A stretch of DNA of 45,312 nucleotides from Veterinaerplatzvirus T145P1: the sequence record OZ035786.1. One strand, written 5' to 3'. This document shows positions 554 to 43,993 of the stretch, piece after piece. Under the pieces are notes generated by a model. It did not search any database. It was not told the origin of the DNA and saw nothing but the letters and a program-made list of their open reading frames with translations. The position numbers were made by a program, and so were the translations under genes. Position 1 is the first letter of the stretch, and every line of letters begins with the position of its first letter.

Positions 554-2119
554 ATGTCTTTAGTATGGGAAGAAATGACCATTCAGGAAAAGATGGCGGT
601 TAAGGCGATATCAGAACACAGCTTCGAGGGGTTTCTTCGCTGCTGGTTTTCAATAACGCAAGGCGAGCGATATATCCCTAACTGGCATCACAAATATCTA
701 TGCCGAATTATCGACGAGATTATTGCAGGTGAGCGCAAGGACACTATAATTAACATAGCGCCTGGTAGCGGGAAGACAGAGATCGCATCAATCCACTTCC
801 AGGCCTACTCGATGGTTAAGCTGAAGAAGGTGAGGAACCTTAACATCTCATTTGCTGACTCCCTGGTTAAGCGCAACTCTAAGCGCGTACGTGACCTTAT
901 CAAGTCTCAAGAATTTCAATCACTATGGCCTTGCAAGTTTGGCACATGCAAAGACGATGAACTTCAGGTTCTTGATGAGAGTGGCAGGGTTAGATTTGAG
1001 TCAATATCAAAGGCGGCTGGGGGTCAGATTACTGGTGCTCGAGGTGGTTATATAACAGAAACATATAGCGGAGCCGTTCTATTGGATGATTTTGACAAAC
1101 CCGCAGATATGCTTTCTCCGGTTTATCGAGCTAACAACCACGTAATGCTTAAGAACACAATTCGATCACGTCGCGCTAGCTCTGTAAAGGGAAAGGCAAC
1201 ACCAATTATCTCTATACAGCAGCGCCTGCACGTCAATGACTCAACCTGGTTCATGATGGAAGGCGGTATGGGCATCGAATTCGATTTAATTAAGATACCA
1301 GCGCTAGTTACCGATGATTACATCGATTCACTTCCTGACTGGATTAAAGATCAGTTTGCTGAGGACGTACTAAGCAGTGAATATATTGAGCGAGATGGAG
1401 TAAAGTACTACAGCTACTTTCCTAAAAAGGAATCCGTAAACGACCTGGTGGCAATGTGGGATAGTGACCCGTACACTTTCCTTAGCCAATATCAACAATG
1501 CCCAGTGGCTCTTGGCGGTAACCTGATTAACGTGGATTGGTTCCAGCGTCTTAGTGATACATTCAGGCCTCCAGCTAAGTACGATTACAGATTCATCACA
1601 TGCGATACTGCGATGACTACAAAGAGTTATAGTGACTTCTCCGTGCTTCAGTTATGGGGCTATAAGGATGCTAAGATTTACCTGATAGACCAGCGCAGGG
1701 GAAAATGGGAAGCACCAGAGTTGGAGGCTGAACTGCTGGACTTCGAGAAGAAATCAAGGGCAACCAGTCAGTCAGATGGTATCCTCAGAAGGATTATTAT
1801 CGAGAAGAAAGCGTCTGGTATCGGCCTGATTCAATCAGCTGGCAGGGTTATGCGAACACCGATAGAGCCATACGTACCGGATAACGACAAGCTGACTCGC
1901 GTAATGAGCGCATTGCCACAGATTAAGGCTGGTAATGTCGTTCTTCCAGAGTCTGCGCCGTGGCTAAACGGATTGCTTACTGAGGTTGCTGCTTTTACGG
2001 CAGATGATAGCCACAAACACGACGACCAGATTGACTGTCTAACTATGGCAATCAACCTGGTACTTAACATTGCGGACGACCCCAAAGCGCGACTAATGCG
2101 CATAGCGGGAATTAAATAG
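554..2119 (+). CDS. terL: terminase large subunit
   Basis: 521 aa; Walker A-like PGSGKTE near N-terminus, acidic nuclease-like C-terminal half (DDFDKP, DDQIDC); position after small subunit. Confidence 0.88.
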   Translation: MSLVWEEMTIQEKMAVKAISEHSFEGFLRCWFSITQGERYIPNWHHKYLCRIIDEIIAGERKDTIINIAPGSGKTEIASIHFQAYSMVKLKKVRNLNISFADSLVKRNSKRVRDLIKSQEFQSLWPCKFGTCKDDELQVLDESGRVRFESISKAAGGQITGARGGYITETYSGAVLLDDFDKPADMLSPVYRANNHVMLKNTIRSRRASSVKGKATPIISIQQRLHVNDSTWFMMEGGMGIEFDLIKIPALVTDDYIDSLPDWIKDQFAEDVLSSEYIERDGVKYYSYFPKKESVNDLVAMWDSDPYTFLSQYQQCPVALGGNLINVDWFQRLSDTFRPPAKYDYRFITCDTAMTTKSYSDFSVLQLWGYKDAKIYLIDQRRGKWEAPELEAELLDFEKKSRATSQSDGILRRIIIEKKASGIGLIQSAGRVMRTPIEPYVPDNDKLTRVMSALPQIKAGNVVLPESAPWLNGLLTEVAAFTADDSHKHDDQIDCLTMAINLVLNIADDPKARLMRIAGIK

Positions 2120-2159
2120 CACGAATTGCTAAACGCTAGAGCCACGGATGGCGTATAGT
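2116..2159 (+). promoter_or_regulatory. phage promoter family copy: TAGCA-N5-TGCTA palindrome, 22-bp spacer, TATAGT
   Basis: atagcacgaattgctaaa overlapping the terL stop codon, tatagtta 22 bp downstream; drives 2191..2565. Confidence 0.6.
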
Positions 2160-2190
2160 TACTTCACACCAACAAGAGGAGAAAAGGCAA

Positions 2191-2565
2191 ATGAAAAACA
2201 AATCAAAGGCTTTATATCTTGGAAACACTTATGACGAGTGTTGTGAATTCACGCCGGGAAGAGAGTACGATTGTTACGATCTTGGTGATGGATTTATTGG
2301 TCTTTGCGATGATAATGATACTGAACGTTGCATTAAAAACGGAACGTTCTACAAGTTTAAACTAATCAATGAGGATCATTTTGTAACTGAAACTGAGTGC
2401 GCATCCATGCAGCCTAGCGCCGATAAAAAACCCGAGTTTAGATATTACATCAATGGCGAAGTGGTTACTAAGGTAAAGTTCGACGATACGCTATTATGCG
2501 TCAAGGACTTTGAATCTAGTGGGGTTGATACATCATCAATCAAGTTCGAAGTAAAATTCGAGTAA
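2191..2565 (+). CDS. hypothetical Cys-rich protein (moron-like insert between terminase and portal)
   Basis: 124-aa ORF with SD agaggag, own upstream promoter copy and own downstream terminator; 8 Cys, no signal peptide. Confidence 0.6.
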   Translation: MKNKSKALYLGNTYDECCEFTPGREYDCYDLGDGFIGLCDDNDTERCIKNGTFYKFKLINEDHFVTETECASMQPSADKKPEFRYYINGEVVTKVKFDDTLLCVKDFESSGVDTSSIKFEVKFE

Positions 2566-2586
2566 TCAAAAACCGTGTGATAAACT

Positions 2587-2609
2587 AGCCCCCACATGGG
2601 GCTTTTTTT
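2587..2609 (+). terminator. rho-independent terminator
   Basis: agcccc-caca-tggggct hairpin followed by T7 run. Confidence 0.7.
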
Positions 2610-2623
2610 ATTGGAGAAATGCA

Positions 2624-3874
2624 ATGGTAAAGACAGACAGCTACGCCAATATCTTTCTCGGCGGCAGTGATGGTAGTGAGATTTACGGGAGCTTACAGAA
2701 TCAGGAGCCTACAATCCTGGCTTCTCTTTATGCGAATAATGCGCTGGTACGTAGAATTATCGACACAATCCCTGAGACAGCATTAGCGGCAGGATTCCAC
2801 ATTGATGGTATTGATGATGAGCCAGCATTTTGGTCGCGATGGGATGACCTGGAAATGACGCAGAATATTAACGACGCCTGGGCGTGGGCGAGATTATTCG
2901 GTGGCGCCGCTATTGTGGCTATCGTTAAGGACAATAGGGCACTAACAAGTGCGGTCAGAGAAGGTGCTGAGCTTGAAACAGTTCGCGTTTACGACCGCAC
3001 GCAAGTAAAAGTACAAACTCGCGAGGAGAATCCCCGTAACGCACGTTTTGGTAAGCCACTAACCTATCGCATCACCACAAATGAGAGCGATATGTTCTAT
3101 GATGTGCACTACAGCCGAATTCACATCATTGACGGAGAGCGAATTCCTAACGTAATGCGTCGGCAAAATGATGGCTGGGGCCGTAGCGTTCTATCCAGTG
3201 ACATTCTTGACTCAATTAAGGATTACACCAACTGTGAACGACTTGCTACGCAATTACTGAAGCGCAAGCAGCAGGCGGTGTGGAAGGCGAAAGGTCTGGC
3301 TGAGTTATGTGATGATAGCGAAGGATTTGGTGCAGCTCGATTGAGACTTGCACAGGTTGACAACAATAGCGGCGTAGGCCAGGCGATTGGTATCGATGCG
3401 GAATCTGAAGAATACAGCATTCTCAACTCCGATATTGGCGGGATCGATGCGTTCCTGGATAAGAAGTTCGATAGAATCGTTGCCCTGAGCGGTATCCATG
3501 AAATCATCCTGAAAAACAAGAACGTTGGTGGTGTGTCATCAAGCCAGAATACAGCCCTTGAGACATTCCATAAGCTAGTTGACCGCAAACGCAACTCTGA
3601 GTTGCTTCCTATTCTTGGGTTCTTAATCCCGTTCATCGTAAATGTAGAAGAGTGGTCAGTTGAGTTTTATCCTTTAGCTCAGGAATCAAGCAAGGATAAG
3701 GCTGAGATTCTGGAGAAGAACGTAAACAGCATTGCATCACTAATTGCATCTGGCGCTATGAATGCTAACGAGGCGCGTGATACACTACGAGCCATCGCAC
3801 CAGAGATTAAGATTGGTGATGGTGATATTGAAGCTCAACAACAAGAAAAATCAGAGGAGGTTGTGATTGCTTAA
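2624..3874 (+). CDS. portal protein (putative)
   Basis: 416-aa ORF directly after terminase genes, acidic C-terminus; size and position typical of siphophage portal. Confidence 0.7.
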   Translation: MVKTDSYANIFLGGSDGSEIYGSLQNQEPTILASLYANNALVRRIIDTIPETALAAGFHIDGIDDEPAFWSRWDDLEMTQNINDAWAWARLFGGAAIVAIVKDNRALTSAVREGAELETVRVYDRTQVKVQTREENPRNARFGKPLTYRITTNESDMFYDVHYSRIHIIDGERIPNVMRRQNDGWGRSVLSSDILDSIKDYTNCERLATQLLKRKQQAVWKAKGLAELCDDSEGFGAARLRLAQVDNNSGVGQAIGIDAESEEYSILNSDIGGIDAFLDKKFDRIVALSGIHEIILKNKNVGGVSSSQNTALETFHKLVDRKRNSELLPILGFLIPFIVNVEEWSVEFYPLAQESSKDKAEILEKNVNSIASLIASGAMNANEARDTLRAIAPEIKIGDGDIEAQQQEKSEEVVIA

Positions 3875-3939
3875 ATTAATTGGTTACGGTGGGGGTTAAT
3901 GAATGATGAATTTGATGGCTTTTAGTGAGGAGAATTGGG

Positions 3940-8196: not shown

Positions 8197-8587
8197 ATTA
8201 TCATTAGCAGCAAGGAAATTCGTCAACGATTTGTTGGTAAATGAATTTCCGGTCAGATATCCAGTTGCGTGGGAGAATGCTGCATTCACCCCTCCTGCGG
8301 ATGGATCAATCTGGCTTAAGTACGACTACACGGAAGTTGATACTGTAACCTACGGATTAAGCAGGAAGTGCAAATACTACGTAGGCATGGTGCAGATTTC
8401 TGTTTTCTTCAGCCCTGGCACTGGAATTGATAGACCCAGACAAATCGCTAATCAATTGGCAGAATCTATCGTTGATGGTACAATGCTTGACAGCGGGACC
8501 ATTTATGAGTCTGGAGTTGTTAACCCGGTTATCAAATCCAAATCTGGGTGGTTTATCCCGGTTCGTTTTTATGTTCGTCTAGACTAA
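8186..8587 (+). CDS. tail terminator-like protein (putative)
   Basis: GTG start 6 nt after SD ggaggagg and just before upstream stop; the track ATG at 8045 would overlap the previous gene by about 150 nt. Confidence 0.4.
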   Translation: MQYELSLAARKFVNDLLVNEFPVRYPVAWENAAFTPPADGSIWLKYDYTEVDTVTYGLSRKCKYYVGMVQISVFFSPGTGIDRPRQIANQLAESIVDGTMLDSGTIYESGVVNPVIKSKSGWFIPVRFYVRLD

Positions 8588-9292: not shown

Positions 9293-9336
9293 ATAGCACT
9301 TTTTGCTAAAGCGGTTATTCAACTTTGCTGTATAGT
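9293..9336 (+). promoter_or_regulatory. phage promoter family copy
   Basis: atagcactttttgctaaa, 22 bp, tatagtta, then cctcatcgaaacgaaa leader. Confidence 0.6.
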
Positions 9337-9369
9337 TACCTCATCGAAACGAAATGAGAGATTAAAGAA

Positions 9370-9618
9370 ATGAATAACGTTAAAAACATCATCAAGCTCG
9401 CTGCGGTTCTGTTTGCTTTTTATGCGGTAGTTCAGATTGTAAACCCAACAGGTGAGGCTGATGCCAATAGCAAGGCAAACAAATATACTGTTGAATTTGC
9501 TAAGGCTGAGCGAGCATGTCAGGAGCTTGTAGGTGGCAAAGTTGACCAAATCATGAAATACGGCAAAGAGGTTTGTAAGGGCTCGGCTGCTAAGATTGCA
9601 AAAGAAAACACTAAGTAA
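9370..9618 (+). CDS. small secreted or membrane protein (moron-like, inside tail module)
   Basis: 82-aa ORF; N-terminal hydrophobic segment IIKLAAVLFAFYAVVQIV; two Cys; own promoter. Confidence 0.5.
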   Translation: MNNVKNIIKLAAVLFAFYAVVQIVNPTGEADANSKANKYTVEFAKAERACQELVGGKVDQIMKYGKEVCKGSAAKIAKENTK

Positions 9619-20510: not shown

Positions 20511-20549
20511 TTTGTATTCCTTATTAAGTTGTTTCGTTTTGATGTAGTA

Positions 20550-20594
20550 ATAATACAACCGTCAGTGCGGAATGTCTTTAGCTATTCGTGCTAT
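20550..20594 (-). promoter_or_regulatory. phage promoter family copy (minus strand)
   Basis: Reverse complement reads atagcacgaatagctaaag, 22 bp, tattat, then catcaaaacgaaac leader before the lipoprotein gene. Confidence 0.5.
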
Positions 20595-22879: not shown

Positions 22880-22924
22880 ATAGCATGAATTGCTAAAGAC
22901 AAAACTAAAGGGTGTGGGTATGAT
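22880..22924 (+). promoter_or_regulatory. phage promoter family copy
   Basis: atagcatgaattgctaaag abutting dam stop, tatgat about 23 bp downstream. Confidence 0.55.
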
Positions 22925-22953
22925 TACCCAATCAACAACGAACGAGGTTAAAG

Positions 22954-23604
22954 ATGAAAATTTCAGAATCATGCAAGTCAATTTTAAACGCTCTACACAC
23001 CGCCAAATCGCTATTTGCGAAGGCTGAAAAATCAAAACAGAACTCACACCTCAAGAACAGATACAGCACCCTTGATGATGTTCTTGCCGCTGTAGAACCA
23101 GGCCTTGAAGAATGTGGTCTTGTAATGTTTCAGAGCGTAATTGATAGCGAAGCTACTGGACTGCTGAAGGTTGAAACGAAGTTGTTCCATGCAGAGTCAG
23201 GCGAGTGGGTTAGCTTCTTAATGATTGTCCCTATCAGCAAGAATGATGCTCAAGGTTACGGATCTGCGCTTACATATGCTCGACGCTACGGAATTACAGC
23301 AGCTTTAGGTCTTAGTCAGGCAGATGACGATGGTAATCTCGCAGCTAAAGGCGTTAAAGACTTTAAACGTGAGCTTGAGAAGTGTAATAGTCTTGATGAG
23401 CTACGTAACGTATGGAAAGAGGCTAAGCAATCACTAGACGCTGCGGGATGGAAGGTTTTTGAACCTCACATTATCGAGCGCAAGGCAGAGATTGAAGCAA
23501 ATGCAGCAACTGGCTTTAACCCTGCAACACCAAAGAAAGTTGCAGAAAAAAGTAGTACTGAAGAAAAGACTGAAGTAGAATCACAACAAATCGACACATT
23601 CTAA
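22954..23604 (+). CDS. erf: Erf-like single-strand annealing protein
   Basis: GSALTYARRYG motif characteristic of Erf-family recombinases; SD gaggt. Confidence 0.65.
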   Translation: MKISESCKSILNALHTAKSLFAKAEKSKQNSHLKNRYSTLDDVLAAVEPGLEECGLVMFQSVIDSEATGLLKVETKLFHAESGEWVSFLMIVPISKNDAQGYGSALTYARRYGITAALGLSQADDDGNLAAKGVKDFKRELEKCNSLDELRNVWKEAKQSLDAAGWKVFEPHIIERKAEIEANAATGFNPATPKKVAEKSSTEEKTEVESQQIDTF

Positions 23605-24100: not shown

Positions 24101-26683
24101 TTAACCTATTTTAGTGTAAGTCCATTGGTATGTTGCAGCTCCCTTGGCAGTTATCCCGACAGTTCTTCCACTTACATCCATTGAAGTGAAAGCGCCAGTT
24201 TTTGTAATTGTTATTGATGATGTGGAACCATCAAAAAGTACGTCAGCAATTACACTATAGTTAGGTCCAGCACCAGTAACCCAGGTCGAAACCTTGTATA
24301 AACCAGCGTTGTTTGGCAACTCAAAAAGACCAGTTGAAACATTCGCCTGAACAGCCATCGCGCCCTTTCCGGTGTACACACCGTCAGTTTTAAGACCTAA
24401 TGATGAATATGTTTGCTTATAGCCACCAATGATGGCACCACCCATAGGTTCAGTAAACCAGTTCACATTACCCTGACTAACAACAGATATCGCTGGAGAC
24501 CCCCCTTTAGCTGACTGAAACCTACCGCTTAAAATGTCAATTCTAGATGCTGAGTCCTGGGCGTAGATAGTTACAGGATACCCACCAGAACCAGTGTAAA
24601 CCAAGCCGTTATCATTAATGTCATCTTCAGACGAGTCAATGATTACATGGGAAGTTCCAGACGCCTTGATGAACGAAACAACACCGCTAGAACCAGCACC
24701 TGTTGTTCTAACTTCATTCTTCCATGATGTTAGGCCTGAAATTCTGCCATTTGAGTTATTAAACCTAATCAGGCAACAATCTTGCGATCCGTTGGTGTCA
24801 ATAATGTTACCTTCAACGTCCATCCCTAGTATGTTTACGCTATGGCTGTTGATGAAGTTAATCCCAGCACCACCGTAAGAACCAGATGTTGATGATATAT
24901 TACTGGCATCCATTGCGCAGTTAATCATTGTAACGCTCATTACCGAACCAAATTCATAAGGTGAAATGCAATCTGATGCGTAACAAGTCTCAAGCAATAT
25001 TGTCGTTCCTGTCGCCTTTATGAATCCAGTCCTGCAATTCCTGGCCCAAACATTCTGTAGCTTAGTCTGGTATGTTGCAGTGGTGTCCGTGTAGCAACCC
25101 CATGCTCCATGGACTGTGCAATCTTTGATACATGAATTTTCTAGCCCTGTTGCAGAACCAACATTAGAAACGAAGTTAAATGCTATCTTTTGATCATTCC
25201 CTGATGCTGAGGTAGGTGTAGTGCCTGGGTTATAAAAAATGTAAAGTCCCTCAATAAACACTTGATACATTCTTATGTTTTGCGCATCACCCTGAACCAG
25301 GGCGAATAGGTTTATGTTCCCATCAACTGAGATAAATGTTTGCGCCCTGTTAATTTGGTTTGTTCCCTCGCCAATAATTCTTGTACTGTTGCCAATCCTC
25401 ACCGTCCTGTTAATGAACATAAAACCTTTTGGTATGTATACAGTTTTACCGGTATTAACTGCCGCCTGAAGCGCAACTGCGTCAAGTGACTCGTTAAGGT
25501 TTGATGCAAATGGATAAACAAACCGCGCATCCTCAATTGTCGAGAATTTAGATGAAAGAGGAACTAAAGTACCATTGTTTGTAGCACCAAAATCCATGAC
25601 GTTAACAAAGTCACCAAGTTTACTATCCTTACTCCTTTCTACAAATGAGGCCAATGTAGATTTGTAATTCATCGAACTGAATTGTGATTGAGCCTCTGTC
25701 TTTGAATAAACATCTGATCTTGGGTAAACCTCTGATTTTGAATAAACATCAAGCAAACCCCTAGCTCTTTCAGCAGTAGCGCCGCCAACCGACTTCCCGC
25801 CTTCAACCATAATGTATTCGCGTAAGTAGAAGTTTCTTGATCCTTTAGCGCCCGTCATCCTGAGGTGAGTAGCCCTATATGATGAATCAGAATTCAATGC
25901 CGGATATATATCAATCTCATAAGAGCCTTGAGCTCCACTTGTGCCCCTAACACATATAAAAAGCGTAGCGTTGGCTGTAGTGTATGTCGCAGCTAGTGAT
26001 GCTGGAACGTTTGTCATGTTAGATACTACAACTCGATAATTACCACCACTTTTAAATTCAACTTGCTGCCAATCCAATGATGGCATAGCTATTGTCGATG
26101 TGCTTGCGATACCCTCATTGGCTAGAGTAACCAAAGTTGCAGCATCACCAGCGTTGGCAATGACATTAACTGTGTTGTTGTATGCCTCCTGCGCACTACT
26201 TGCGCTTGATTCAGCCTGAGCCTTGCTTGTAGCGGCAGCTTGCTGGCTGGCAGATGCAGCCGATTCGCTTGAAGCCGCATTTGTTTCGCTTGCCTTCGCC
26301 TCATCAACTAATCGTTGTAACTTATCGAAATCAAAATCACCAGATTCAGCCAACTCAACAAGTGACGCAACCTCAGTTTCACGTGACTGATAGTAACGAA
26401 GAGTTTCCGCAACATCCTGAGCTAGCCCCTGAACGGTAATTCCATCATGCGCAAGGATAGCGTAACCAGTTCCAGCAGGAACAGTTTCGGAGTTAGGGTT
26501 GTAAACATTAATCTGCGTATCGCTGATAATTTCTGAGATGGTGTAAATCTGTACTGGTTCAGTTTTAAATACAATGGTTGCACCTACGCGAATCAGTGTA
26601 AGAGGTGCTTTCCATGTTGTCCCGACGCCAGTCACCTCACCACTTGCTGCTAGAGAAGCTGTTCCTGAGTCATAAATTGCCAT
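24101..26683 (-). CDS. tailspike / lateral tail fibre with beta-helix (pectate-lyase-like) depolymerase domain
   Basis: Start moved to Met11 of track ORF (SD ggaga 9 nt upstream; track start is GTG). Ala/Ser/Gln-rich coiled-coil neck, then long Cys/Asn/Gly-rich repeat region typical of right-handed beta-helix tailspikes. Confidence 0.7.
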   Translation of the reverse strand: MAIYDSGTASLAASGEVTGVGTTWKAPLTLIRVGATIVFKTEPVQIYTISEIISDTQINVYNPNSETVPAGTGYAILAHDGITVQGLAQDVAETLRYYQSRETEVASLVELAESGDFDFDKLQRLVDEAKASETNAASSESAASASQQAAATSKAQAESSASSAQEAYNNTVNVIANAGDAATLVTLANEGIASTSTIAMPSLDWQQVEFKSGGNYRVVVSNMTNVPASLAATYTTANATLFICVRGTSGAQGSYEIDIYPALNSDSSYRATHLRMTGAKGSRNFYLREYIMVEGGKSVGGATAERARGLLDVYSKSEVYPRSDVYSKTEAQSQFSSMNYKSTLASFVERSKDSKLGDFVNVMDFGATNNGTLVPLSSKFSTIEDARFVYPFASNLNESLDAVALQAAVNTGKTVYIPKGFMFINRTVRIGNSTRIIGEGTNQINRAQTFISVDGNINLFALVQGDAQNIRMYQVFIEGLYIFYNPGTTPTSASGNDQKIAFNFVSNVGSATGLENSCIKDCTVHGAWGCYTDTTATYQTKLQNVWARNCRTGFIKATGTTILLETCYASDCISPYEFGSVMSVTMINCAMDASNISSTSGSYGGAGINFINSHSVNILGMDVEGNIIDTNGSQDCCLIRFNNSNGRISGLTSWKNEVRTTGAGSSGVVSFIKASGTSHVIIDSSEDDINDNGLVYTGSGGYPVTIYAQDSASRIDILSGRFQSAKGGSPAISVVSQGNVNWFTEPMGGAIIGGYKQTYSSLGLKTDGVYTGKGAMAVQANVSTGLFELPNNAGLYKVSTWVTGAGPNYSVIADVLFDGSTSSITITKTGAFTSMDVSGRTVGITAKGAATYQWTYTKIG

Positions 26684-26706: not shown

Positions 26707-26725
26707 ATAGCACGAATTGCTAAAG
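26707..26725. promoter_or_regulatory. orphan copy of the TAGCA-N5-TGCTA palindrome (no TATAGT box downstream)
   Basis: atagcacgaattgctaaag in + orientation between primase terminator and tailspike start, both on minus strand. Confidence 0.5.
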
Positions 26726-26747
26726 TGGATTGTAGCATCTTTGAGTC

Positions 26748-27697: not shown

Positions 27698-27752
27698 AAT
27701 TACCTCCATAAACAATAAAGGCACTATACATAATGCAAAGTGCCATTGTTTA

Positions 27753-28232
27753 TCAAATCGTGCTGTTTTGCTCTTTCTTCTTTTGGTTCTCTAATTTTAT
27801 CTTGCGCCATGAACGACACTCTGGCTTAGTGGCTAATTCAGCCTCAGTGACGACTCGCAGCATATGGCGCTTTTTGCACCGAAGTGTCAGCGGTTTCCCG
27901 TTGCCGTCGAATTGCAGGTCTGGTCGGCAGAATGTAGCGCGAAAACCTTCTCCATTTCGCTTATAGTAGTTGTGAGAAAGTTGAGCCCCACGCGCAGAAA
28001 TCATACCGCGCTTAAACCATTCTTCTACAGCCTGTGGTGTTACCTTTAACTGCTTTGCGATATTCGCCTTTGTGCCGAAGAAATCAAGAACTATCTCTAG
28101 CCGCGCGCGTAGCCCGGCTCTTACTTCATCTTTTAAAACATAGTAGCCTGAAGGTCGTTTACGTTGCTTTTTGTCTTCGGTGCGGATGGTTCCGTTATTG
28201 CCGTTAATTGTTCGCTTGTCGACTGTATTCAT
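27753..28232 (-). CDS. HTH DNA-binding protein (Cro/YdaS-like)
   Basis: Helix-turn-helix-like segment TKANIAKQLKVTPQAVEEWFKRG; basic termini; its SD overlaps a palindrome copy. Confidence 0.5.
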   Translation of the reverse strand: MNTVDKRTINGNNGTIRTEDKKQRKRPSGYYVLKDEVRAGLRARLEIVLDFFGTKANIAKQLKVTPQAVEEWFKRGMISARGAQLSHNYYKRNGEGFRATFCRPDLQFDGNGKPLTLRCKKRHMLRVVTEAELATKPECRSWRKIKLENQKKKEQNSTI

Positions 28233-28244: not shown

Positions 28245-28287
28245 ATAGCATTTTTTGTTAAAAGTCATCCTGATTTGATGGTATCAT
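28245..28287 (+). promoter_or_regulatory. phage promoter family variant upstream of helicase, overlapping the SD of the divergent HTH gene
   Basis: atagcattttttgttaaaa, then tatcat about 21 bp downstream. Confidence 0.45.
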
Positions 28288-28333
28288 TGTACTCAATTAA
28301 ACGCTACAAGACAATTTTTATAGGAATTTAGAT

Positions 28334-30328
28334 ATGTTGCCTATCGAGAAGCTGGTTGCAAATTTCGATAAAGAAAGAATCAAACAGATTCAGAAAGACT
28401 ATCAGTTTGGAGAGATAACCCCTTACGAATTCCAGTGCGTGACATTTGATGCAATCGGAAAGGCTATTGGCAAGTACGAGGCACCATTTATCGCAGACCT
28501 TTCAGTATCTGCGGGTAAGACAATCATTCTTGCCATGATTGGTAAGCGCATGGAGCAGCTTGGGCTTCCCTATATGGTTCTCTCTCGCCAGTCAGAGATT
28601 ATCAGCCAGAACTCAGAAGAGCTTCGTAATTTCGGCATACGTAATAGCGTCTATTGCGCTGGCCTTAACGTCAAATCAGTTTACTACCCAACTATAGTGG
28701 CCAGTGAGGGTACGGCAGCCAACGGCTTGTTTAAGGGGCTTGGTGACTATGTTCCGGCAGTTATCGCTATAGATGAGTGTCACATGGTCGATCACATGGA
28801 TATCGTGGAGGCTGAAGAGAATGAAGAAACATTTGAGCAAATGAGCACAAAGAAAGGCGATATGGTTTTTAAGGATGGCGTAAACACAGGATTGCTTGGT
28901 ACTGGTCGTGCGCAGTACACGCTAATTATCACCGAGATGAAACGTCGTTGTCGTGAGAAGTACGGGCGTGAGCTTCGTATATTCGGTCTTACTGGCAGCC
29001 CGTATCGTAACAACGATCATATCGTCGTTAGCAACCCAAACATCCGTGGATTCTGGCGCAAAACAGTGATTCAGGTGCCAACAAATTATCTGGTTGATTT
29101 GGGCTTCGTTGTTCCTACTGTTTATGGTGAAGTTGGTGACCTGGGTTATGACCTTAGTGAGTTTGCGCCAGACGGAAGCGATGGCGTTAAAGACTTCAGC
29201 AAGAAAGAAATGGATGCAATGGCTGCAAAGATTCACGACAACCAATCAATGACCCAAAAGATAATGGGTTTTGTTGTGAAAATACTCGAGACTCGTAACG
29301 CTGCATTGGTAACATGCGCTGGCAAACTCCATTGTGATGAGGCTGCTGCGGCACTACCAGATGGATACCCTTACGCCATCATCACAGACTCTACGGGAGA
29401 GAGGAAGCGCAGGGAGATTCTGGCTGATTGCCAGACAGGTAAGTACAAAATAATATTCCAGATTGGTTGTCTTACTACGGGCGTAAACCAGCCGCTGTGG
29501 GATACTAGCGTCATACTACGCAAGATTGGCAGCCTAACGCTTATGATTCAGCTTCTTGGTAGGGGGATGCGCAAACTTAAGAGATCTCATATTGATGCTG
29601 GTTTTCATAAAGAAGATCACCTTGTGCTGGATTTTGCTGGCGCACTTGATGATATGGCTGAGCTTTACTTTGACCCAATTATTGAAGAGATTCAGGCTGA
29701 GAAGTTTAAATCCTCAAGAAAAGGTGGCGATGAGGTTCGTCAGTGTCCGCAATGTGGATATGAAAATTCCCCATTCGCTCGTCGCTGTAGCAATAAGATT
29801 GATGGCGTTAGATGCGATCACTTCTTTCAGTTCACAATTTGCGAAGACATTACCGACGCGCAAACTAAATCGGTAATTAAAAAGGGTTGTGGCGCTCGCA
29901 ATGACATAGCAGCAAAGGTTTGCAGGGAATGCGGCGAGATGCTTAAAGACCCAAATGCTAACCTGACTGGCAAAATGTATCGTCGTGGTGATTACCTTCG
30001 TGTTTATGATTTTCAAGTTGGGTTAAGTAAGAATCAGACAGGCATTGTAGTTAAGTACAATATAATGGCTCATAACGGAGAGAGATTTAACGCTTGGGAG
30101 TTCTTTAATCCAGAATCAGACCATCGAGTTTGCAGTGTGCTCTGGAAGAACTTTTGCTTAGCTCATATTGAGAATCGCACGGAAGCGGCACGAATTGGCA
30201 GGCTTAAAAATGCCAGAATGATTATGACTAACGTAGATAAGTTCCGTGCGCCAGTTCAGGTTACGCATCGCCGGAATGCAAAAGGAAAGGACGTGATAGC
30301 GTTTAAGAATTTTGGAGAATTATTATGA
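28334..30328 (+). CDS. superfamily 2 DNA helicase with C-terminal zinc-ribbon motifs
   Basis: Walker A SVSAGKT, DExH box IAIDECH, motif VI-like LLGRGMRK; CPQCGYEN...CRECGEM pairs near C-terminus. Confidence 0.8.
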   Translation: MLPIEKLVANFDKERIKQIQKDYQFGEITPYEFQCVTFDAIGKAIGKYEAPFIADLSVSAGKTIILAMIGKRMEQLGLPYMVLSRQSEIISQNSEELRNFGIRNSVYCAGLNVKSVYYPTIVASEGTAANGLFKGLGDYVPAVIAIDECHMVDHMDIVEAEENEETFEQMSTKKGDMVFKDGVNTGLLGTGRAQYTLIITEMKRRCREKYGRELRIFGLTGSPYRNNDHIVVSNPNIRGFWRKTVIQVPTNYLVDLGFVVPTVYGEVGDLGYDLSEFAPDGSDGVKDFSKKEMDAMAAKIHDNQSMTQKIMGFVVKILETRNAALVTCAGKLHCDEAAAALPDGYPYAIITDSTGERKRREILADCQTGKYKIIFQIGCLTTGVNQPLWDTSVILRKIGSLTLMIQLLGRGMRKLKRSHIDAGFHKEDHLVLDFAGALDDMAELYFDPIIEEIQAEKFKSSRKGGDEVRQCPQCGYENSPFARRCSNKIDGVRCDHFFQFTICEDITDAQTKSVIKKGCGARNDIAAKVCRECGEMLKDPNANLTGKMYRRGDYLRVYDFQVGLSKNQTGIVVKYNIMAHNGERFNAWEFFNPESDHRVCSVLWKNFCLAHIENRTEAARIGRLKNARMIMTNVDKFRAPVQVTHRRNAKGKDVIAFKNFGELL

Positions 30329-30744
30329 AGATTACAGATAAAGAAGATTACATTGAGTTTTACCCGGGTCCGGTTAAGTCATGCCCTAAAGAGGATGACG
30401 AACAAATCTTTTGCTCTGATTGGGTTAAGTATAACTACCCAGATATGGTATTTTTCCATTGCGTGAATGAGGGAAAGAAAACCATTGGTCAAGCAAGAAA
30501 AGACCAGGCTAAGGGGCTTCTAAAAGGCGTATCAGACTGTATGTTTCTTATTCCTGAATCACTTCGAGGTAAGTATCCTTTCGGAGCTATAGAGCTAAAG
30601 AGGGCTGGCAAAACTCAAGCAAGTCCAGTCAGCGAAGAACAGAAAGCATTCCTGAAAAGTGTAATGGAATCAGGCGGTTTCTCGGCAGTCGCCTACGGAC
30701 GTGAGGGTTTTCTTGCAGCATTCAAAGAAATGATTTCAAAATAG
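30325..30744 (+). CDS. VRR-NUC domain nuclease (putative)
   Basis: ATG overlaps helicase stop (ATGA); GVSDCMFL...GAIELKRAGK resembles the D...E-x-K core of VRR-NUC. Confidence 0.5.
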   Translation: MKITDKEDYIEFYPGPVKSCPKEDDEQIFCSDWVKYNYPDMVFFHCVNEGKKTIGQARKDQAKGLLKGVSDCMFLIPESLRGKYPFGAIELKRAGKTQASPVSEEQKAFLKSVMESGGFSAVAYGREGFLAAFKEMISK

Positions 30745-30784
30745 CACGAATTGCTAAAGGCGATTTTAAAAGATGGGGTATAGT
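30741..30784 (+). promoter_or_regulatory. phage promoter family copy
   Basis: atagcacgaattgctaaa with TAG stop inside, 22 bp, tatagtta, ccatcgaaacgaaa leader. Confidence 0.6.
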
Positions 30785-30820
30785 TACTCCATCGAAACGA
30801 AACACAAAGAGAGAAATAAA

Positions 30821-31594: not shown

Positions 31595-31785
31595 TTAATG
31601 CAACTTGTGTAAAAGCAAATGGTTTCTTTACTCTACTTGAAGATTACGAAATTATCTTTAATTCAGATGGCGCAATAACAGTATTGAGCGATAATGGATG
31701 CTATTGGTTCGTTAGTTATCAAGGTGACGGGTATTACGGGTGTAGAGATTCGAATGGAAAAGAAGTTAGCTTCTTAGTTGAATAG
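31591..31785 (+). CDS. hypothetical protein
   Basis: 64-aa ORF, ATGA overlap upstream, stop inside next promoter motif. Confidence 0.45.
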   Translation: MINATCVKANGFFTLLEDYEIIFNSDGAITVLSDNGCYWFVSYQGDGYYGCRDSNGKEVSFLVE

Positions 31786-31825
31786 CACTTTTTGTTAAAA
31801 CTCAAATCCACGTATGGATTATATT
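31782..31825 (+). promoter_or_regulatory. phage promoter family copy (variant)
   Basis: atagcactttttgttaaaa, 22 bp, tatatt. Confidence 0.5.
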
Positions 31826-31855
31826 AAGCACATCAACAACACATAGGATTAAGAG

Positions 31856-32563: not shown

Positions 32564-33694
32564 ATGGCAACAGCAAAAATCACCAACGAACAATTGCGCG
32601 AAGAGTTAGCAAACGGCATGACCAACAAGGCAATCGCAGAGAAGTACGGAATGAACATTCGCAACGTTGAATTGCGTCGCAGTAAATTAGCTAAACAAGG
32701 CGAAGGGCATGGTCGCGATGTAAGCAACTTAATCCCTCAGGGCTATGCAGTTAAAGGCGTCTCCAGCTTAATTGGTGCTGATGGCGAGATTAAGCAACAG
32801 TGGGTTAAATCAGATATCGACAAGGAGAAGCAAGAAGAGATGATGCTTCAGGCAATTCAGGCCCTAACTGATGAGTTGCCGCGTGAGAAAGCTAAAGCTT
32901 TAAGGGTTGGTTTATGGGAAGATACTTTAAGCCTTTACCCCGTGTTCGACCTCCACATTGGAGCAATGGCTCATCATGCTGAGTGTGGTGAGAACTATAG
33001 TACTGAAATCGCTGAGAGAGTTCTTAATGATTACTTTGATTACGCGGTTGCAAAGGCCCCCAACTCCAAGAAAGCTGTATTGCTGATTGGGGGTGACTTC
33101 CTTCACTCTGACGGAATGGAAGCGGTAACACCAACCAGTTGTCATGTTCTTGATCAAGATAGCCGTTATCACAAACTTGTTTACGTAGCAGTGCGATCGA
33201 CACGTCGAGCAATTAGCCGCATGCTTGATAAGCACGCCGAGGTTGAGGTTCAGATTATTCCAGGTAACCACGATCTCTCAGGTATGATTTGGCTTCGTGC
33301 TGCAATGGCAGCTTTCTATATGGATGAGCCTCGAGTTAATGTTGATGCGTCCCCCGCTGCGCTTCACGTAACGCAATTTGGGAAGACGCTGCTTGGTTAC
33401 TGCCATGGGCACGAACTCAAAAAGCCTGATACCCGACTATCAGCACTGGCTCGTGACCATCGCAAAGCATTTGGTGAATCAGAGTATGTTTACACCCATT
33501 CAGGCCACTATCACCATCAAACTATTACGGAAGGAAATCTGGGTATTGATGAATCACACGGCCAGCTTGGAGCGAAAGATGCGTACAGTGCTAACGGAGG
33601 TTATCGCTCTTACCGACAGGCTTCGGTGATAATTTATAGTCCTGAGTTTGGTGAGATTGGACGATTTACTTGCCGCCCGGAAATGTTTAGTTAA
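32564..33694 (+). CDS. HTH domain fused to calcineurin-like metallophosphoesterase
   Basis: N-terminal HTH-like TNKAIAEKYGMNIRNVELRRSKL; phosphoesterase motifs DLH, GGDFLH, GNHD, CHGHE, HSGHYHH in order. Confidence 0.6.
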   Translation: MATAKITNEQLREELANGMTNKAIAEKYGMNIRNVELRRSKLAKQGEGHGRDVSNLIPQGYAVKGVSSLIGADGEIKQQWVKSDIDKEKQEEMMLQAIQALTDELPREKAKALRVGLWEDTLSLYPVFDLHIGAMAHHAECGENYSTEIAERVLNDYFDYAVAKAPNSKKAVLLIGGDFLHSDGMEAVTPTSCHVLDQDSRYHKLVYVAVRSTRRAISRMLDKHAEVEVQIIPGNHDLSGMIWLRAAMAAFYMDEPRVNVDASPAALHVTQFGKTLLGYCHGHELKKPDTRLSALARDHRKAFGESEYVYTHSGHYHHQTITEGNLGIDESHGQLGAKDAYSANGGYRSYRQASVIIYSPEFGEIGRFTCRPEMFS

Positions 33695-33737
33695 TAGCAC
33701 TTTTTGCCTAACGCATGCCGTAGAAATGCGGCATAAT
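33694..33737 (+). promoter_or_regulatory. phage promoter family copy (variant with hairpin in spacer)
   Basis: atagcactttttgcctaa, 22-bp spacer containing atgccg/cggcat inverted repeat, cataat, cacatcgaaacgag leader. Confidence 0.5.
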
Positions 33738-33778
33738 TACCACATCGAAACGAGATGAACTAAACGAGGAAACACAAA

Positions 33779-37955: not shown

Positions 37956-37991
37956 TTTGTTTTCCTTTGTGTCTTTCGTTTCGATGGGATA

Positions 37992-38035
37992 ACTATACAG
38001 GAAAAGCCCCGAATGGCTTTAGCGATTAGTGCTAT
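37992..38035 (-). promoter_or_regulatory. phage promoter family copy (minus strand)
   Basis: Reverse complement reads atagcactaatcgctaaag, 22 bp, tatagtta, tcccatcgaaacgaaaga leader. Confidence 0.55.
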
Positions 38036-39214: not shown

Positions 39215-39425
39215 TTTGTTACCTTTTGAGTTTTTTTATTATCGACATCTCTTCAACGTACTCGCTACAACTCGGGATTTTACTCCCGGCCCGGCATCCT
39301 AACAAAAGGACCCGCTCGGCGCTTTGGTGGGTGAGGTAACGCTTCCTCACATTGCGCGGTAGTATTTACTCCTTTTGGTCTCTTTCGAGAGTGACTCAGA
39401 GTCTGCTACCGTGTCGATGAGATTA

Positions 39426-39470
39426 AGTATACGCATAGTTAGCCACACTGTCTTTAGCAAAAAGTGCTAT
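39426..39470 (-). promoter_or_regulatory. phage promoter family copy (minus strand) with roughly 200-nt leader
   Basis: Reverse complement reads atagcactttttgctaaag, about 22 bp, tatact, then ctcatcgacacgg. Confidence 0.5.
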
Positions 39471-40059: not shown

Positions 40060-40099
40060 AGCAGTCACTGAAACGAAGTAAAACAAACGAGGTATCAAC

Positions 40100-40648: not shown

Positions 40649-40738
40649 TAGACTACCATACCACTTGCGGTACAGCGAGGAAGAGGTTGAGGTGGCCATT
40701 GAGTTCTATAGGAAAGCTAAATCACTACTGAATGGTAA

Positions 40739-40782
40739 ATAGCACTTTTTGCCTAACGCGGTAATGCCATGGATGGCATAAT
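40739..40782 (+). promoter_or_regulatory. phage promoter family copy (variant with hairpin in spacer)
   Basis: atagcactttttgcctaa, spacer with atgcca/tggcat inverted repeat, cataat, cctcatcgaaacgag leader. Confidence 0.5.
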
Positions 40783-40820
40783 AGCCTCATCGAAACGAGA
40801 TACGTAAATGAGGATTTAAA

Positions 40821-41039
40821 ATGAGCAAGGTAATCACACTGCAATGCCTTAAGACAAATAACCCAGAGTTCTTAAAAGGTCACAAATATGTGGCAACCCT
40901 GGTGGATGGGAAAACATGGGCGGTTAAGGGTGGATTCCAGGATTACAAATTCCCACTTGAGCACATACCTGGCGGAAACCTTGGTTTTGTTAGTGACTGC
41001 CGCTCAGTTAAGTTTGTTTTTGAGGTTGTAATGAAATAG
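40821..41039 (+). CDS. hypothetical protein
   Basis: 72-aa ORF, stop inside next promoter motif. Confidence 0.5.
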   Translation: MSKVITLQCLKTNNPEFLKGHKYVATLVDGKTWAVKGGFQDYKFPLEHIPGGNLGFVSDCRSVKFVFEVVMK

Positions 41040-41079
41040 CAATAATTGCTAAATCTTCCGCAAGGCCATTTGATATAGT
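41036..41079 (+). promoter_or_regulatory. phage promoter family copy
   Basis: atagcaataattgctaaa, 22 bp, tatagt embedded in aaggcca/tggcctt inverted repeat. Confidence 0.55.
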
Positions 41080-41120
41080 GGCCTTGTTGAAGCAAAACAA
41101 CCAATCACGAGGTATAAATT

Positions 41121-41560: not shown

Positions 41561-41592
41561 TCAAGATTCGCATTATCAATAACAACGAGGAA

Positions 41593-41802
41593 ATGAAGAT
41601 GGAAAATATTCGTATTGAAGATGTTCACTTTGACCAAGCTGAGGTCGGAATCACAAAAAGCGCTCGCGGAGACGTTGTATATCTGGACTTTAATCCGGAT
41701 GACTACGGGGACGGCCAGATGCTGATGCACTACAGTCCTGATAAGGCGCGCAAATTGGCGGCAGCATTAATCCTGGCGGCGGAGGAGGTGGAGAAGCAAT
41801 GA
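41593..41802 (+). CDS. hypothetical protein (small paralog family member)
   Basis: 69 aa; aligns with 41121..41348 (MKMENIRIEDVHFDQAEV, YSPDKARKLAAAL). Confidence 0.5.
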   Translation: MKMENIRIEDVHFDQAEVGITKSARGDVVYLDFNPDDYGDGQMLMHYSPDKARKLAAALILAAEEVEKQ

Positions 41803-42059
41803 AACGTTTAATGAAATGCATGACTATTATTGCGGCAATGATTGCTCTTACTGGTTGCGAGAAGGCACCTGAGGTTCAGATTCAGTCAGGTGAATTCAAT
41901 GTGGAGCGCCTATTCACAGTGGATGGATGTACCGCCTACCGATTCCGAGATAGCGATAGAGCCATCTACTACACAAATTGCAATGGCAGTACGCAGAGTG
42001 AGTACAGGCACGGCAGGGCCATGAGACAAGAAACAGTTCAGACAGATCGCACTAATTGA
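41799..42059 (+). CDS. lipoprotein (early region)
   Basis: Signal peptide with lipobox IALTGCE; 86 aa with 4 further Cys. Confidence 0.5.
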   Translation: MKRLMKCMTIIAAMIALTGCEKAPEVQIQSGEFNVERLFTVDGCTAYRFRDSDRAIYYTNCNGSTQSEYRHGRAMRQETVQTDRTN

Positions 42060-42242
42060 TAAAAGGGGATCCATCCTGACTGGTATAATCCCCAGCATCA
42101 ACCACATGAATGGAAGTTAAGTGACGATATACGAACATAAATTCAGTAGCAGGGGTATTGATATGCTCCTGCGCTATGTAGACGAAAAATACGCAAATCT
42201 CATGCTTAAGACGCATGGCGGCACAATAACGAGGATTGAGAT

Positions 42243-42572
42243 ATGAGTAAATACGATCGCAAGATTATTGGCATTGATGGCACAGTAACAACAGTAGATG
42301 TTTATCGTGTTCTTGATGCGTTTGGCGTATCTGACCCAGCCACTCAGCATGCGGTAAAGAAGATGCTTTGCACTGGCCTGCGTGGACACAAGGATTACTT
42401 AACTGACCTTAATGACTCCATTGAGTCACTACAGAAGGCTAAAGAGATTTACTGGCAGAAGATGATTCATGAATCCGATAAAATCACTGATTCAATTTTA
42501 AATCCACCAAAAGAAGCGAGATTTAGTACTGCTAATGGTTCAGAATTCACTTTCGGAAAGGTTAGAGTCTAA
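42243..42572 (+). CDS. hypothetical protein
   Basis: 109-aa ORF; upstream TGgTATAAT extended -10 at about 42081. Confidence 0.5.
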   Translation: MSKYDRKIIGIDGTVTTVDVYRVLDAFGVSDPATQHAVKKMLCTGLRGHKDYLTDLNDSIESLQKAKEIYWQKMIHESDKITDSILNPPKEARFSTANGSEFTFGKVRV

Positions 42573-42616
42573 ATAGCACGAATTGCTAAACCCGCTCCTG
42601 CGGGTTTTGTTATAGT
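42573..42616 (+). promoter_or_regulatory. phage promoter family copy with terminator hairpin in the spacer
   Basis: atagcacgaattgctaaa, spacer contains cccgc-tcct-gcggg followed by ttttgtt, then tatagtta. Confidence 0.55.
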
Positions 42617-42644
42617 TAGTTCACACCAATCGAGAGGTAAGAAA

Positions 42645-42737
42645 ATGAAGCAATACACATCAAGCAATCACCATAACGGTCACATCATGCAGTTCTATCG
42701 CCACAATCTGAAGACTAAGGGAGTGTTTGGAAAATGA
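42645..42737 (+). CDS. hypothetical small protein
   Basis: 30-aa ORF ([18 protein letters not shown]...) with SD gagaggt; stop overlaps next ATG. Confidence 0.3.
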
Positions 42738-42952
42738 TTACAATTAACCTGTCAGAAAAGCAAGCAGCAGAACTCAAGTGCATGCTGTCAATCTTTGAGA
42801 AGACAAATGACCGAGCAATTGCAAAAGAGGTCACGACTCAAATCAACAACCAGCAGTTCGACGTCAGTGACTTCGAGTCGTCACGGCAGTACGAAGCATT
42901 AAGCGTCAACGCTGCATACCTGGCTAACTGGGATAAGGCAACGAAGAAATGA
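42734..42952 (+). CDS. hypothetical protein
   Basis: 72-aa ORF from the track. Confidence 0.5.
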
Positions 42953-43086
42953 TTTACATCCACACGTACTACACTGGTAAGTTTAATAGCGTCAAACATG
43001 TCCGTGTTCACGATAACTACGAGAGCGCAAAAGCTCAATGGTTGGTTCTTGGTGGTGACATTAATTCATACAGAGTTGCTGAGTAG
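42949..43086 (+). CDS. hypothetical small protein
   Basis: 45-aa ORF ([15 protein letters not shown]...), ATGA overlap upstream, TAG stop inside next promoter motif. Confidence 0.35.
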   Translation: MIYIHTYYTGKFNSVKHVRVHDNYESAKAQWLVLGGDINSYRVAE

Positions 43087-43126
43087 CACTAATTGCTAAA
43101 ACAGTATTGGGGTAATTTGTTATAGT
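43083..43126 (+). promoter_or_regulatory. phage promoter family copy
   Basis: gtagcactaattgctaaaa, 22 bp, tatagtta, ccccatcgaaacgagagagg leader. Confidence 0.55.
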
Positions 43127-43156
43127 TACCCCATCGAAACGAGAGAGGAATAAGAA

Positions 43157-43336
43157 ATGACATTTCAACAAAGTGAGCCAAAGCTCCAGGCTAATCACTT
43201 CGATGGTTATTCGACCTTTATCATTGCCCAGGCCTGCGGGATGCGTGACGAACCACAGGTTCACACAATTCACTTAACCGAAGAGCAGGCTCGAGAGATT
43301 GCTTACGAAATTCTTGAGCAATTGAACCGAATTTAA
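43157..43336 (+). CDS. hypothetical small protein (possible paralog family member)
   Basis: 59-aa ORF; C-terminal LTEEQAREIAYEIL resembles the motif of the 41121 and 41593 proteins. Confidence 0.4.
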   Translation: MTFQQSEPKLQANHFDGYSTFIIAQACGMRDEPQVHTIHLTEEQAREIAYEILEQLNRI

Positions 43337-43385
43337 CGCGACTAAAGCGCATTCTAACGAACGATAATTTAAGTAAGGTGATTCT

Positions 43386-43547
43386 ATGATTAAGATTGTT
43401 TATGTTGGCGAGAGTGATTATGTGGCGCTCATTCAGCGTGGTGATGTGTTCTTCGCTGAGCTAAGTGAGGATGGAAAATATTACATTGTAAAGAATAAGA
43501 ATGGCGAGGATATTTACCTATCAAAAGATGAGGTCATAGTTCACTGA
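43386..43547 (+). CDS. hypothetical small protein
   Basis: 53-aa ORF (MIKIVYVGESDYVALIQRGD...), SD aaggtg. Confidence 0.4.
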   Translation: MIKIVYVGESDYVALIQRGDVFFAELSEDGKYYIVKNKNGEDIYLSKDEVIVH

Positions 43548-43678
43548 TGGATAACTACGAATCACCAAGCCAGTGGGCCAAACGAATGCAGGACGAAGCC
43601 AAGACTGGTGAAGAGGCGATGGCTTACTACGAGCTAGCGCAAATTTGGATGAAGCGGGAGGGCAAGAGCAATGATTAA
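43547..43678 (+). CDS. hypothetical small protein
   Basis: 43-aa ORF (MDNYESPSQWAKRM...), start overlaps upstream stop (TGATG). Confidence 0.3.
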   Translation: MDNYESPSQWAKRMQDEAKTGEEAMAYYELAQIWMKREGKSND

Positions 43679-43823
43679 CACTTGCATTTATTTTTATGGC
43701 CATGAATTTATTGATGACTTAATGTACTTTCACGAAAAGTATGGCGACACATTCGAATGCGATGGTGACAATCTTGAGGTTCTAGCGACATTCAATAGGG
43801 GTGGCAAAAATGAGTTTCACTGA
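43671..43823 (+). CDS. hypothetical small protein
   Basis: 50-aa ORF (MINTCIYFYGHEFIDD...) overlapping neighbours by a few codons. Confidence 0.3.
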   Translation: MINTCIYFYGHEFIDDLMYFHEKYGDTFECDGDNLEVLATFNRGGKNEFH

Positions 43824-43953
43824 ATATGTTATCGCATGTGAACGACTGGTCTTTGATATGAAGACTTTTCACTGGTTCATAATTAAGGATTTAGTTAAGC
43901 CTTATAAGAAAGGTGTTATGCCAGAGCAGTTTGTTAAGTCGTTCTACAAATAG
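43810..43953 (+). CDS. hypothetical small protein
   Basis: 47-aa ORF (MSFTEYVIACERLVFDMKTFHW...), TAG stop inside next promoter motif. Confidence 0.3.
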   Translation: MSFTEYVIACERLVFDMKTFHWFIIKDLVKPYKKGVMPEQFVKSFYK

Positions 43954-43993
43954 CACGAATTGATAAACCAGATCGCCACGGATGGCATATAAT
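43950..43993 (+). promoter_or_regulatory. phage promoter family copy (variant)
   Basis: atagcacgaattgataaa, spacer with gcca/tggc inverted repeat, TATAAT. Confidence 0.55.

Follow-up and report, generated by a model that had tools for sequence, protein, structure and literature searches.

Veterinaerplatzvirus T145P1 is a virulent T1-like phage of Escherichia coli in the family Drexlerviridae, and the window analyzed here, 45,312 nucleotides of sequence record OZ035786.1, is interspersed with copies of one short repeat. Its first 25 kb are 86 to 93% identical to Rtp/ACG-M12-like coliphages, which are also Drexlerviridae. The copies have in common the core ATAGCAC-NNN-TTGCTAAA, followed by a TATAGT-like box and an A/C-rich leader. 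A preliminary description of this DNA listed about 16 copies, presented as a TAGCA-N5-TGCTA palindrome 22 bp (21 to 23) ahead of TATAGT. We found a copy at each of those positions (12 on the plus strand, 3 on the minus strand, and an orphan palindrome at 26707) and two further copies, at 27766 on the minus strand, ahead of the primase gene, and at 42046 on the plus strand. Judged from their sequence, the units look like sigma-70 promoters in which a usable -35 element is missing and an activator site occupies the class II position, and we consider it probable that they are class II promoters activated by the host proteins Rob, MarA, and SoxS.

The repeat greatly exceeds chance expectation. In the window TAGCA-N5-TGCTA has 9 exact matches versus 0.04 expected, and the leader CATCGAAACGA, which had been described as recurrent, indeed has 7 matches with at most one mismatch versus 0.74 expected. 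We defined a complete unit as a 20-bp site (a predicted marbox, described below) with a -10 hexamer at a gap of 17 to 19 bp, counted from the end of the site. Comparison of motif density with shuffled sequence had been named beforehand as one refuting test; the window holds 18 complete units, comprising 17 real units and one likely chance match at 2320, versus 0.17 in shuffled versions of the window and 0 in phage lambda. As first described, palindrome and -10 hexamer are mostly 22 bp apart (13 copies), with 23 bp in three copies and 21 bp in one; counted from the end of the 20-bp site, the gaps are 18, 19, and 17 bp, respectively. Matches at 2320, 15846, and 35300 are intragenic, lack a convincing -10, and resemble chance occurrences.

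Two units lie in the left part of the window on the plus strand. The first, 2116..2166 (site 2116-2135, ATAGCACGAATTGCTAAACG; gap 18; TATAGT 2154-2159; predicted start 2166), is the predicted promoter of the gene at 2191..2565, and the terL stop codon TAG (2117-2119) lies within its site. The second, 9293..9343 (site 9293-9312; gap 18; TATAGT 9331-9336; predicted start 9343, in cATCGAAACGA), would serve the gene at 9370..9618. The minus-strand unit 20543..20594 (site 20594-20575; gap 19; TATTAT 20555-20550; predicted start 20543) has a partial -35, AAGACA, and is the predicted promoter of a lipoprotein/membrane protein pair, while the plus-strand unit 22880..22931 (site 22880-22899; gap 19; TATGAT 22919-22924; predicted start 22931) is that of erf (22954..23604).

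Around the primase and helicase genes the arrangement is more intricate. The orphan site, 26707..26726 when read on the plus strand, has no partner -10 of its own. It lies in reverse orientation 2 to 3 nt downstream of a minus-strand extended -10 (TGcTACAAT), and the same arrangement recurs in T1 at approximately 34902 (TGaTAAAAT) and in Rtp at approximately 33762. In the window, the orphan follows directly on the primase terminator, with about 24 nt to the tail-fiber start, which is the ATG at 26683 and not the GTG at 26713. A protein bound to the orphan would cover approximately +1 to +20 of the tail-fiber promoter, which suggests a repressor-like position. The primase gene (ATG 27697) has its predicted promoter in the minus-strand unit 27716..27766 (site 27766-27747, ACAGCACGATTTGATAAACA; gap 18; TATAGT 27728-27723), and the stop codon of a gene for a Cro-like protein falls within that site. 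The plus-strand unit 28245..28294 (site 28245-28264; gap 17; TGg-TATCAT 28282-28287) is the predicted promoter of the helicase gene (28334..30328). It overlaps the divergent canonical promoter of the Cro-like gene, so that the segment 28233-28333 contains face-to-face promoters: TTGTCT-17-TACAAT, at 28314-28286 on the minus strand, overlaps the -10 of the helicase promoter. The predicted transcript of the Cro-like gene would read through the site at 28245-28264.

The remaining units occupy the right part of the window. On the plus strand are 30741..30791 (site 30741-30760; gap 18; TATAGT 30779-30784; predicted start 30791, again in cATCGAAACGA), 31782..31832 (site 31782-31801; gap 18; TATATT 31820-31825), and 33694..33744, upstream of the lysis cassette (site 33694-33713, variant TTGCCTAA; gap 18; CATAAT 33732-33737). 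Two units are on the minus strand, 37985..38035 (site 38035-38016; gap 18; TATAGT 37997-37992; predicted start 37985) and 39419..39470 (site 39470-39451; gap 19; TATACT 39431-39426; partial -35 AAGACA). Six more plus-strand units follow, each with a gap of 18: 40739..40789 (site 40739-40758; TGg-CATAAT 40777-40782), 41036..41086 (site 41036-41055; TGa-TATAGT 41074-41079), 42046..42096 (site 42046-42065, ATCGCACTAATTGATAAAAG; TGg-TATAAT 42084-42089), 42573..42623 (site 42573-42592; TGt-TATAGT 42611-42616), 43083..43133 (site 43083-43102; TGt-TATAGT 43121-43126), and 43950..44000 (site 43950-43969; TATAAT 43988-43993). Downstream of the last of these is a gene for tRNA-Arg (anticodon TCT; 44955-45031), called by both Rfam and ARAGORN, which precedes a terminator at 45274-45291 that is itself ahead of terS. 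No unit stands directly ahead of terS-terL and the main head/tail operon (1-2116 and 44000-45312).

The preliminary description left undecided whether this family was already known. A 2024 re-annotation of phage TLS reported a 21-nt intergenic direct repeat, aaATAGCACnnnTTGnTAAAA, with similar repeats in T1, Rtp, and Rogue1, and its authors left the function as an open question, suggesting a stoperator, an enhancer-binding site, or an UP-like element (PMC11447400). The repeat in the window is this published repeat. On rescanning the TLS genome and comparing it with the window, we found the same consensus, intergenic placement, orientation with transcription, and GAA/TTT/AAA subgroups, and a similar distance to start codons (about 76 nt in TLS, 69 to 89 nt for the window units). 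The TLS paper includes neither a fixed distance to a -10 nor a marbox match; the fixed distance to the -10 box and the leader are what the preliminary description added. Within the literature searchable in full text, which leaves most subscription papers outside, no paper connected the repeats of T1-like phages to marboxes, MarA, SoxS, or Rob, and earlier recognition of the marbox match is therefore not fully excludable. Nor did the literature yield a transcription-start map for any T1-like phage or other member of the Drexlerviridae.

Promoter architecture and site sequence

To follow the units beyond the window, we scanned a set of five genomes, consisting of the window, T1, TLS, Rtp, and Klebsiella phage KP36. 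The scan of relatives that had been suggested earlier bore out the motif, with 17 to 19 complete units in every genome. Across the set there were 108 marbox matches, 93 of which had a good -10 within 12 to 25 bp. The gap was 18 bp in 75 of these 93 sites, 17 bp in 7, and 19 bp in 5, so that 87 fell between 17 and 19 bp; random positions gave a flat distribution. In a wider scan of viral contigs for the motif, multicopy matches were all on contigs of roughly T1-like size, and single matches were at the level expected by chance for 14 specified bases.

The 75 sites with an 18-bp gap provide a composite view of the promoter. All of them have A at -11 and T at -7, and most have G at -14 (57 sites), C at -1 (46 sites), and A at +1 (63 sites). 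Since -11A, -7T, and the C(-1)A(+1) step are hallmarks of sigma-70 promoters, the start is predicted to be the A of cATCGAAACGA. On this numbering the site would span approximately -51 to -32 and be centered at -40.5, near the class II position of about -41.5. The claim that a sigma-70 -35 hexamer is missing also stood: in the window units, the best match 16 to 18 bp from the -10 has only 2 to 4 of the 6 bases of TTGACA, and a full TGn extended -10 is present in only 6 of 17. With so poor a -35 and so few extended -10 elements, most units would be only weak promoters if no activator were bound. The three units with a 19-bp gap, 20594(-), 22880(+), and 39470(-), have AAGACA 17 bp from the -10, a partial -35 matching at 4 of 6 positions that is absent from the units with an 18-bp gap. 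Canonical -35/-10 promoter-like sites between 26000 and 45312 numbered 42, versus 41.5 in shuffled sequence; canonical promoters being at chance level, the marbox units are the only overrepresented promoter architecture in that segment.

The sequence of the site itself points to the marbox. The classical consensus is AYnGCACnnWnnRYYAAAYn, and the position frequency matrix of the 75 sites agrees with it at each marbox-specified position. Within the window, the 18-mer marbox consensus AYNGCACNNWNNRYYAAA, allowing one mismatch, has 21 matches versus 2.0 expected. The consensus for MarA derived from chromatin immunoprecipitation, gcannwwntgnnaaa, has been stressed as nonpalindromic, and class II promoters are defined by a forward marbox overlapping the -35 (PMC12052159); this 15-mer has 15 exact matches in the window versus 0.92 expected. 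In all 17 window units with a -10, the site is forward, toward the downstream gene.

The preliminary description took the site to be a palindrome bound by a dimer. Its view that these are activator-type promoters gained support from the position of the site near -41, the -11A/-7T pair, and the fixed 18-bp gap, but conservation within the site is asymmetric, and the dimer-bound palindrome gained no support. All 75 sites have G4, but the position opposite it in the dyad has C in 45 of them and T in 26, which fits the Y of the marbox. C7 is present in 71 sites and its dyad partner is T11 in 72, where symmetry would need G. The outer flanks are both A-rich and noncomplementary, with A at both members of the pairs A1/A17 and A0/A18. 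Dyad-symmetric conservation of half-sites and flanks was thus not found in these sites, and the asymmetry, together with the constant forward orientation, argues against a symmetric dimer site. The pattern appears to be that of a marbox bound by a monomer of MarA, SoxS, or Rob and not that of a dyad.

Two other kinds of promoter element were compared with the repeat and rejected. The sigma-54 consensus is TGGCAC-N5-TTGC; the phage TAGCAC-N3-TTGC falls 2 bp short of this spacing and reads AG where the consensus has GG, and a sigma-70 -10 lies at a fixed distance. If TTGCTA were taken as a -35 hexamer, the spacer would be 22 bp.

Stop codons, hairpins, and cassettes

The units are tightly packed against the genes that precede them. 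The preliminary description placed the upstream stop codon inside the palindrome in most copies, and in the five genomes the stop codon of a codirectional upstream open reading frame lies in or abuts the site in 69 of 86 units. The commonest are TAG at site positions 2 to 4 (33 cases) and TAA at positions 15 to 17 (14 cases).

Folding is better than in shuffled versions over the stretch that runs from the marbox end to 16 nt beyond the -10: the mean z score is -2.7 over 89 sites, and values are below -2 in 67% of them. In 27 units of the five genomes the hairpin is in the spacer. One of these, AAACCCGCTCCTGCGGGTTT at 42588-42607 in the 42573 unit, qualified as a terminator, and several T1 hairpins of this kind are labeled terminators in the T1 annotation. 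In 39 units an inverted repeat encloses the -10, its arms varying from copy to copy (GGGGTA/TACCCC, GGGGTT/AACCCC, AAGGCC/GGCCTT). The 41036 unit has a strong hairpin around the -10, CAAGGCCA..TGGCCTTG (-21.9 kcal/mol), and the 43083 unit has the inverted repeat GGGGTAA..TTACCCC on either side of it. The sense strand folds better than the antisense strand by 1.6 kcal/mol (P = 7e-5), with 12% of pairs being G-U, and the hairpins are stronger where the upstream gene is codirectional (z = -3.0 versus -1.7; P = 0.016). Most likely, the hairpins act in read-through RNA, either as terminators or as 3' stabilizers of the upstream message. Rfam gave no match on the unit leaders.

Some units recur almost whole. 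The segments 2116-2200 and 43950-44036 have the spacer hairpin GCCACGGATGGC in common and lead into genes with similar first codons (MKNKSK and MNNKSN); the corresponding copies in Rtp are at 8425 and 4027. The proteins downstream of 2116 and 43950 are otherwise unrelated, and paralogy of the two genes was rejected on that ground. A cassette shared between unrelated proteins suggests that promoter cassettes move, or gene convert, independently of the genes that they precede.

Candidate binding factors

Searches of all six-frame open reading frames of the window with tblastn, phmmer, and a three-sequence profile found no homolog of MarA, SoxS, or Rob (all E > 0.1). A phage-encoded AraC/XylS activator system was rejected, there being no homolog with the double helix-turn-helix (HTH). 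E. coli, as seen in strain K-12, carries marA, soxS, and rob, and a host activator is for these reasons the most economical reading. Because Rob is constitutively abundant, and MarA and SoxS need induction, Rob is the likely default activator. We propose that the element ATAGCAC-NNN-TTGCTAAA-AC is a near-optimal predicted marbox, facing forward in the place of the -35, and that it would be occupied by a host activator of the AraC/XylS type, as a single monomer whose two HTH motifs engage GCAC and YAAA. That activator would most likely be Rob, with MarA and SoxS acting when induced and RamA in Klebsiella. [quoted passage not shown] The upstream stop codon inside the marbox and the hairpin, usually in the spacer or -10 region, are part of the same tight packing. 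The proposal builds on the observed sequence, orientation, spacing, and conservation of the units and on the lack of a phage AraC-type gene, from which we infer host binding, activation, and the start positions.

Several considerations weigh against this proposal. Although unstressed cells contain little MarA and SoxS, ordinary medium supports good growth of T1-like phages. Positions A3 and T11 of the site are conserved, although the marbox consensus leaves them free; the conservation of A3 may be explained by the TAG stop codon at site positions 2 to 4. A conserved Cro-like HTH protein accompanies the motif in every genome examined. Rob is reported to be largely sequestered (PMC9178005), and class II activation by factors of the MarA/SoxS/Rob type is often just 2- to 4-fold (PMC8811837). 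For T1-like phages, the searchable literature yielded no binding data, mapped 5' ends, or host-mutant phenotype.

The Cro-like protein is the obvious phage candidate. Two phage HTH proteins had been put forward as possible binders. The product of 32564..33694 gave no HTH match and was set aside, being an Mre11-like metallophosphoesterase (PHROG "DNA repair exonuclease"); the product of 27753..28232 on the minus strand (159 amino acids; PHROG 2856, "transcriptional regulator") does have a Cro-like HTH. It matches PF14549 at 26.9 bits, below the curated cutoff of 30.2, and has a weak match to P22 Cro (1rzs). It is kept at 45 to 92% identity in T1, TLS, Rtp, and KP36 and is present in 824 Drexlerviridae-type records. 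Since it is found only in the Drexlerviridae of enterobacteria, co-occurrence cannot separate a host factor from a phage factor.

A dimer of such a phage protein might bind TAGCA-N5-TGCTA as a class II activator or as a repressor, giving a cascade from immediate-early to delayed-early genes, and several points speak for it: besides the Cro-type HTH and the conservation of the protein, the gene is faced by its own canonical sigma-70 promoter, the minus-strand TTGTCT-17-TACAAT at 28314-28286 mentioned above, and the half-site centers, about 10 bp apart, would suit an HTH dimer. We nevertheless regard it as unlikely. The lack of dyad symmetry at G4, at C7 and T11, and in the A-rich flanks tells against a dimer, strict forward orientation of an asymmetric site would be unexpected for a homodimer, and the Pfam score is below threshold. 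Most early-gene promoters would also be silent until the Cro-like protein was made, and the position-by-position marbox match, along with the spacing shared with micF (see below), would be coincidence. The two factors could instead share the site, a host activator using the marbox early in infection and the Cro-like protein later binding the core, displacing the activator, and switching off or retuning the promoters, with the orphan at 26707 serving as an operator on the tail-fiber promoter. Evidence for both the marbox and the Cro-like protein would then apply, and this idea would accommodate the orphan, whose placement at approximately +1 to +20 of an extended -10 promoter on the minus strand is common to the window, T1, and Rtp, and the presence of marbox 28245 within the 5' leader of the predicted Cro-like gene transcript. 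It is purely inferential, a second binder is not required, and the palindromic arms consist almost wholly of positions already set by the marbox consensus; we think it quite improbable.

The options put forward by the TLS authors (PMC11447400) point to a repeat with no dedicated factor, whether an UP-like or intrinsic enhancer contacted by alpha, a stoperator or roadblock, or a recombination cassette. The A-tract that ends the repeat, the hairpins that accompany the units, and the recurrence of some cassettes, spacer included, ahead of unrelated genes (2116 versus 43950) all lean that way. UP elements are A/T-rich sequences between -59 and -38 that have no invariant G or C, and an UP element was rejected here since G4, C5, C7, and G13 are invariant or nearly so. 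The fixed 18 bp to an invariant -11A and -7T argues for a promoter element and not a roadblock, and recombination would not explain conservation at the marbox positions specifically. We consider a repeat of this kind very improbable.

If host activators do drive these promoters, as we favor, the consequences would extend beyond T145P1. The marbox match of about 18 promoters, in bases and in spacing, suggests that a host factor of the antibiotic and stress response governs much of the transcription of the phage. More tentatively, and with somewhat less than even confidence, we put forward the broader idea that in T1-like enterobacterial phages most early, replication, and lysis transcription has come under the host Mar/Sox/Rob activators through about 17 to 19 promoters per genome, thereby coupling infection efficiency to the stress state of the host and titrating activators from its resistance regulon. 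Such control would span the range from T1 to the Klebsiella Weberviruses. How efficiently these phages infect would then vary with the bile, antibiotic, and oxidative-stress state of the host, and multidrug-resistant strains in which mar is derepressed, for example, might support them better. As phage DNA replicates, its hundreds of high-affinity marboxes per cell would titrate activators off the host resistance regulon. Common virulent coliphages and Klebsiella phages, among them therapy candidates and the laboratory contaminant T1, would depend on a host stress and resistance regulator, and how well they succeed would be tied to salicylate, to bile and redox stress, and to mar mutations, with a bearing on phage-antibiotic combinations. 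Rob, which is abundant and poorly understood, would gain a role in phage biology, and the units would form a compact set of near-consensus class II marbox promoters for the study of MarA, SoxS, and Rob. The marbox reading also addresses the explicit question in the TLS paper concerning the role of the 21-base repeat.

Relation to known regulatory systems

Among phage systems, the middle promoters of T4 are similar in that they combine a sigma-70 -10 with an activator box, the MotA box, that replaces the -35, and TTGCTAAA looks like such a box. In T4, however, the box is about 12 bp from the -10, as against 20 bp for the comparable distance in the units described here, and the identification was rejected on this difference in spacing. 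The PeSL (promoter-early plus stem-loop) cassettes of T4-type phages are likewise short repeats of a promoter and a hairpin that stand by small early genes, ahead of unrelated genes, but their promoter type differs.

The closer parallels are in the host. Sixteen of the 20 bases of the mar operon marbox, ATGCCACGTTTTGCTAAATC, are those of the phage consensus, TTTTGCTAAA among them; the MarA-DNA crystal structure 1BL0 contains this marbox. The gap to the -10 is 17 bp at fumC; at inaA and mdaB, either the -10 is ambiguous or the site is not the canonical one. The structural archetype of class II activation by Rob, SoxS, and RamA is micF. [quoted passage not shown] In E. coli K-12, exactly 18 bp separate the micF marbox, ACAGCACTGAATGTCAAAAC, from TAGAAT, the same spacing as in the phage units, and MAFFT aligned micF with the 17 window promoters without gaps from the marbox through the -10. 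The phage units thus resemble micF in having a forward 20-bp marbox over the -35, GCAC and (C/T)AAAAC, 18 bp to the -10, and a poor -35. They differ from it in that their sites are closer to the consensus, in their number, about 18 in a 45-kb virulent phage genome, and in having a built-in stop codon and, usually, a hairpin over the spacer or the -10.

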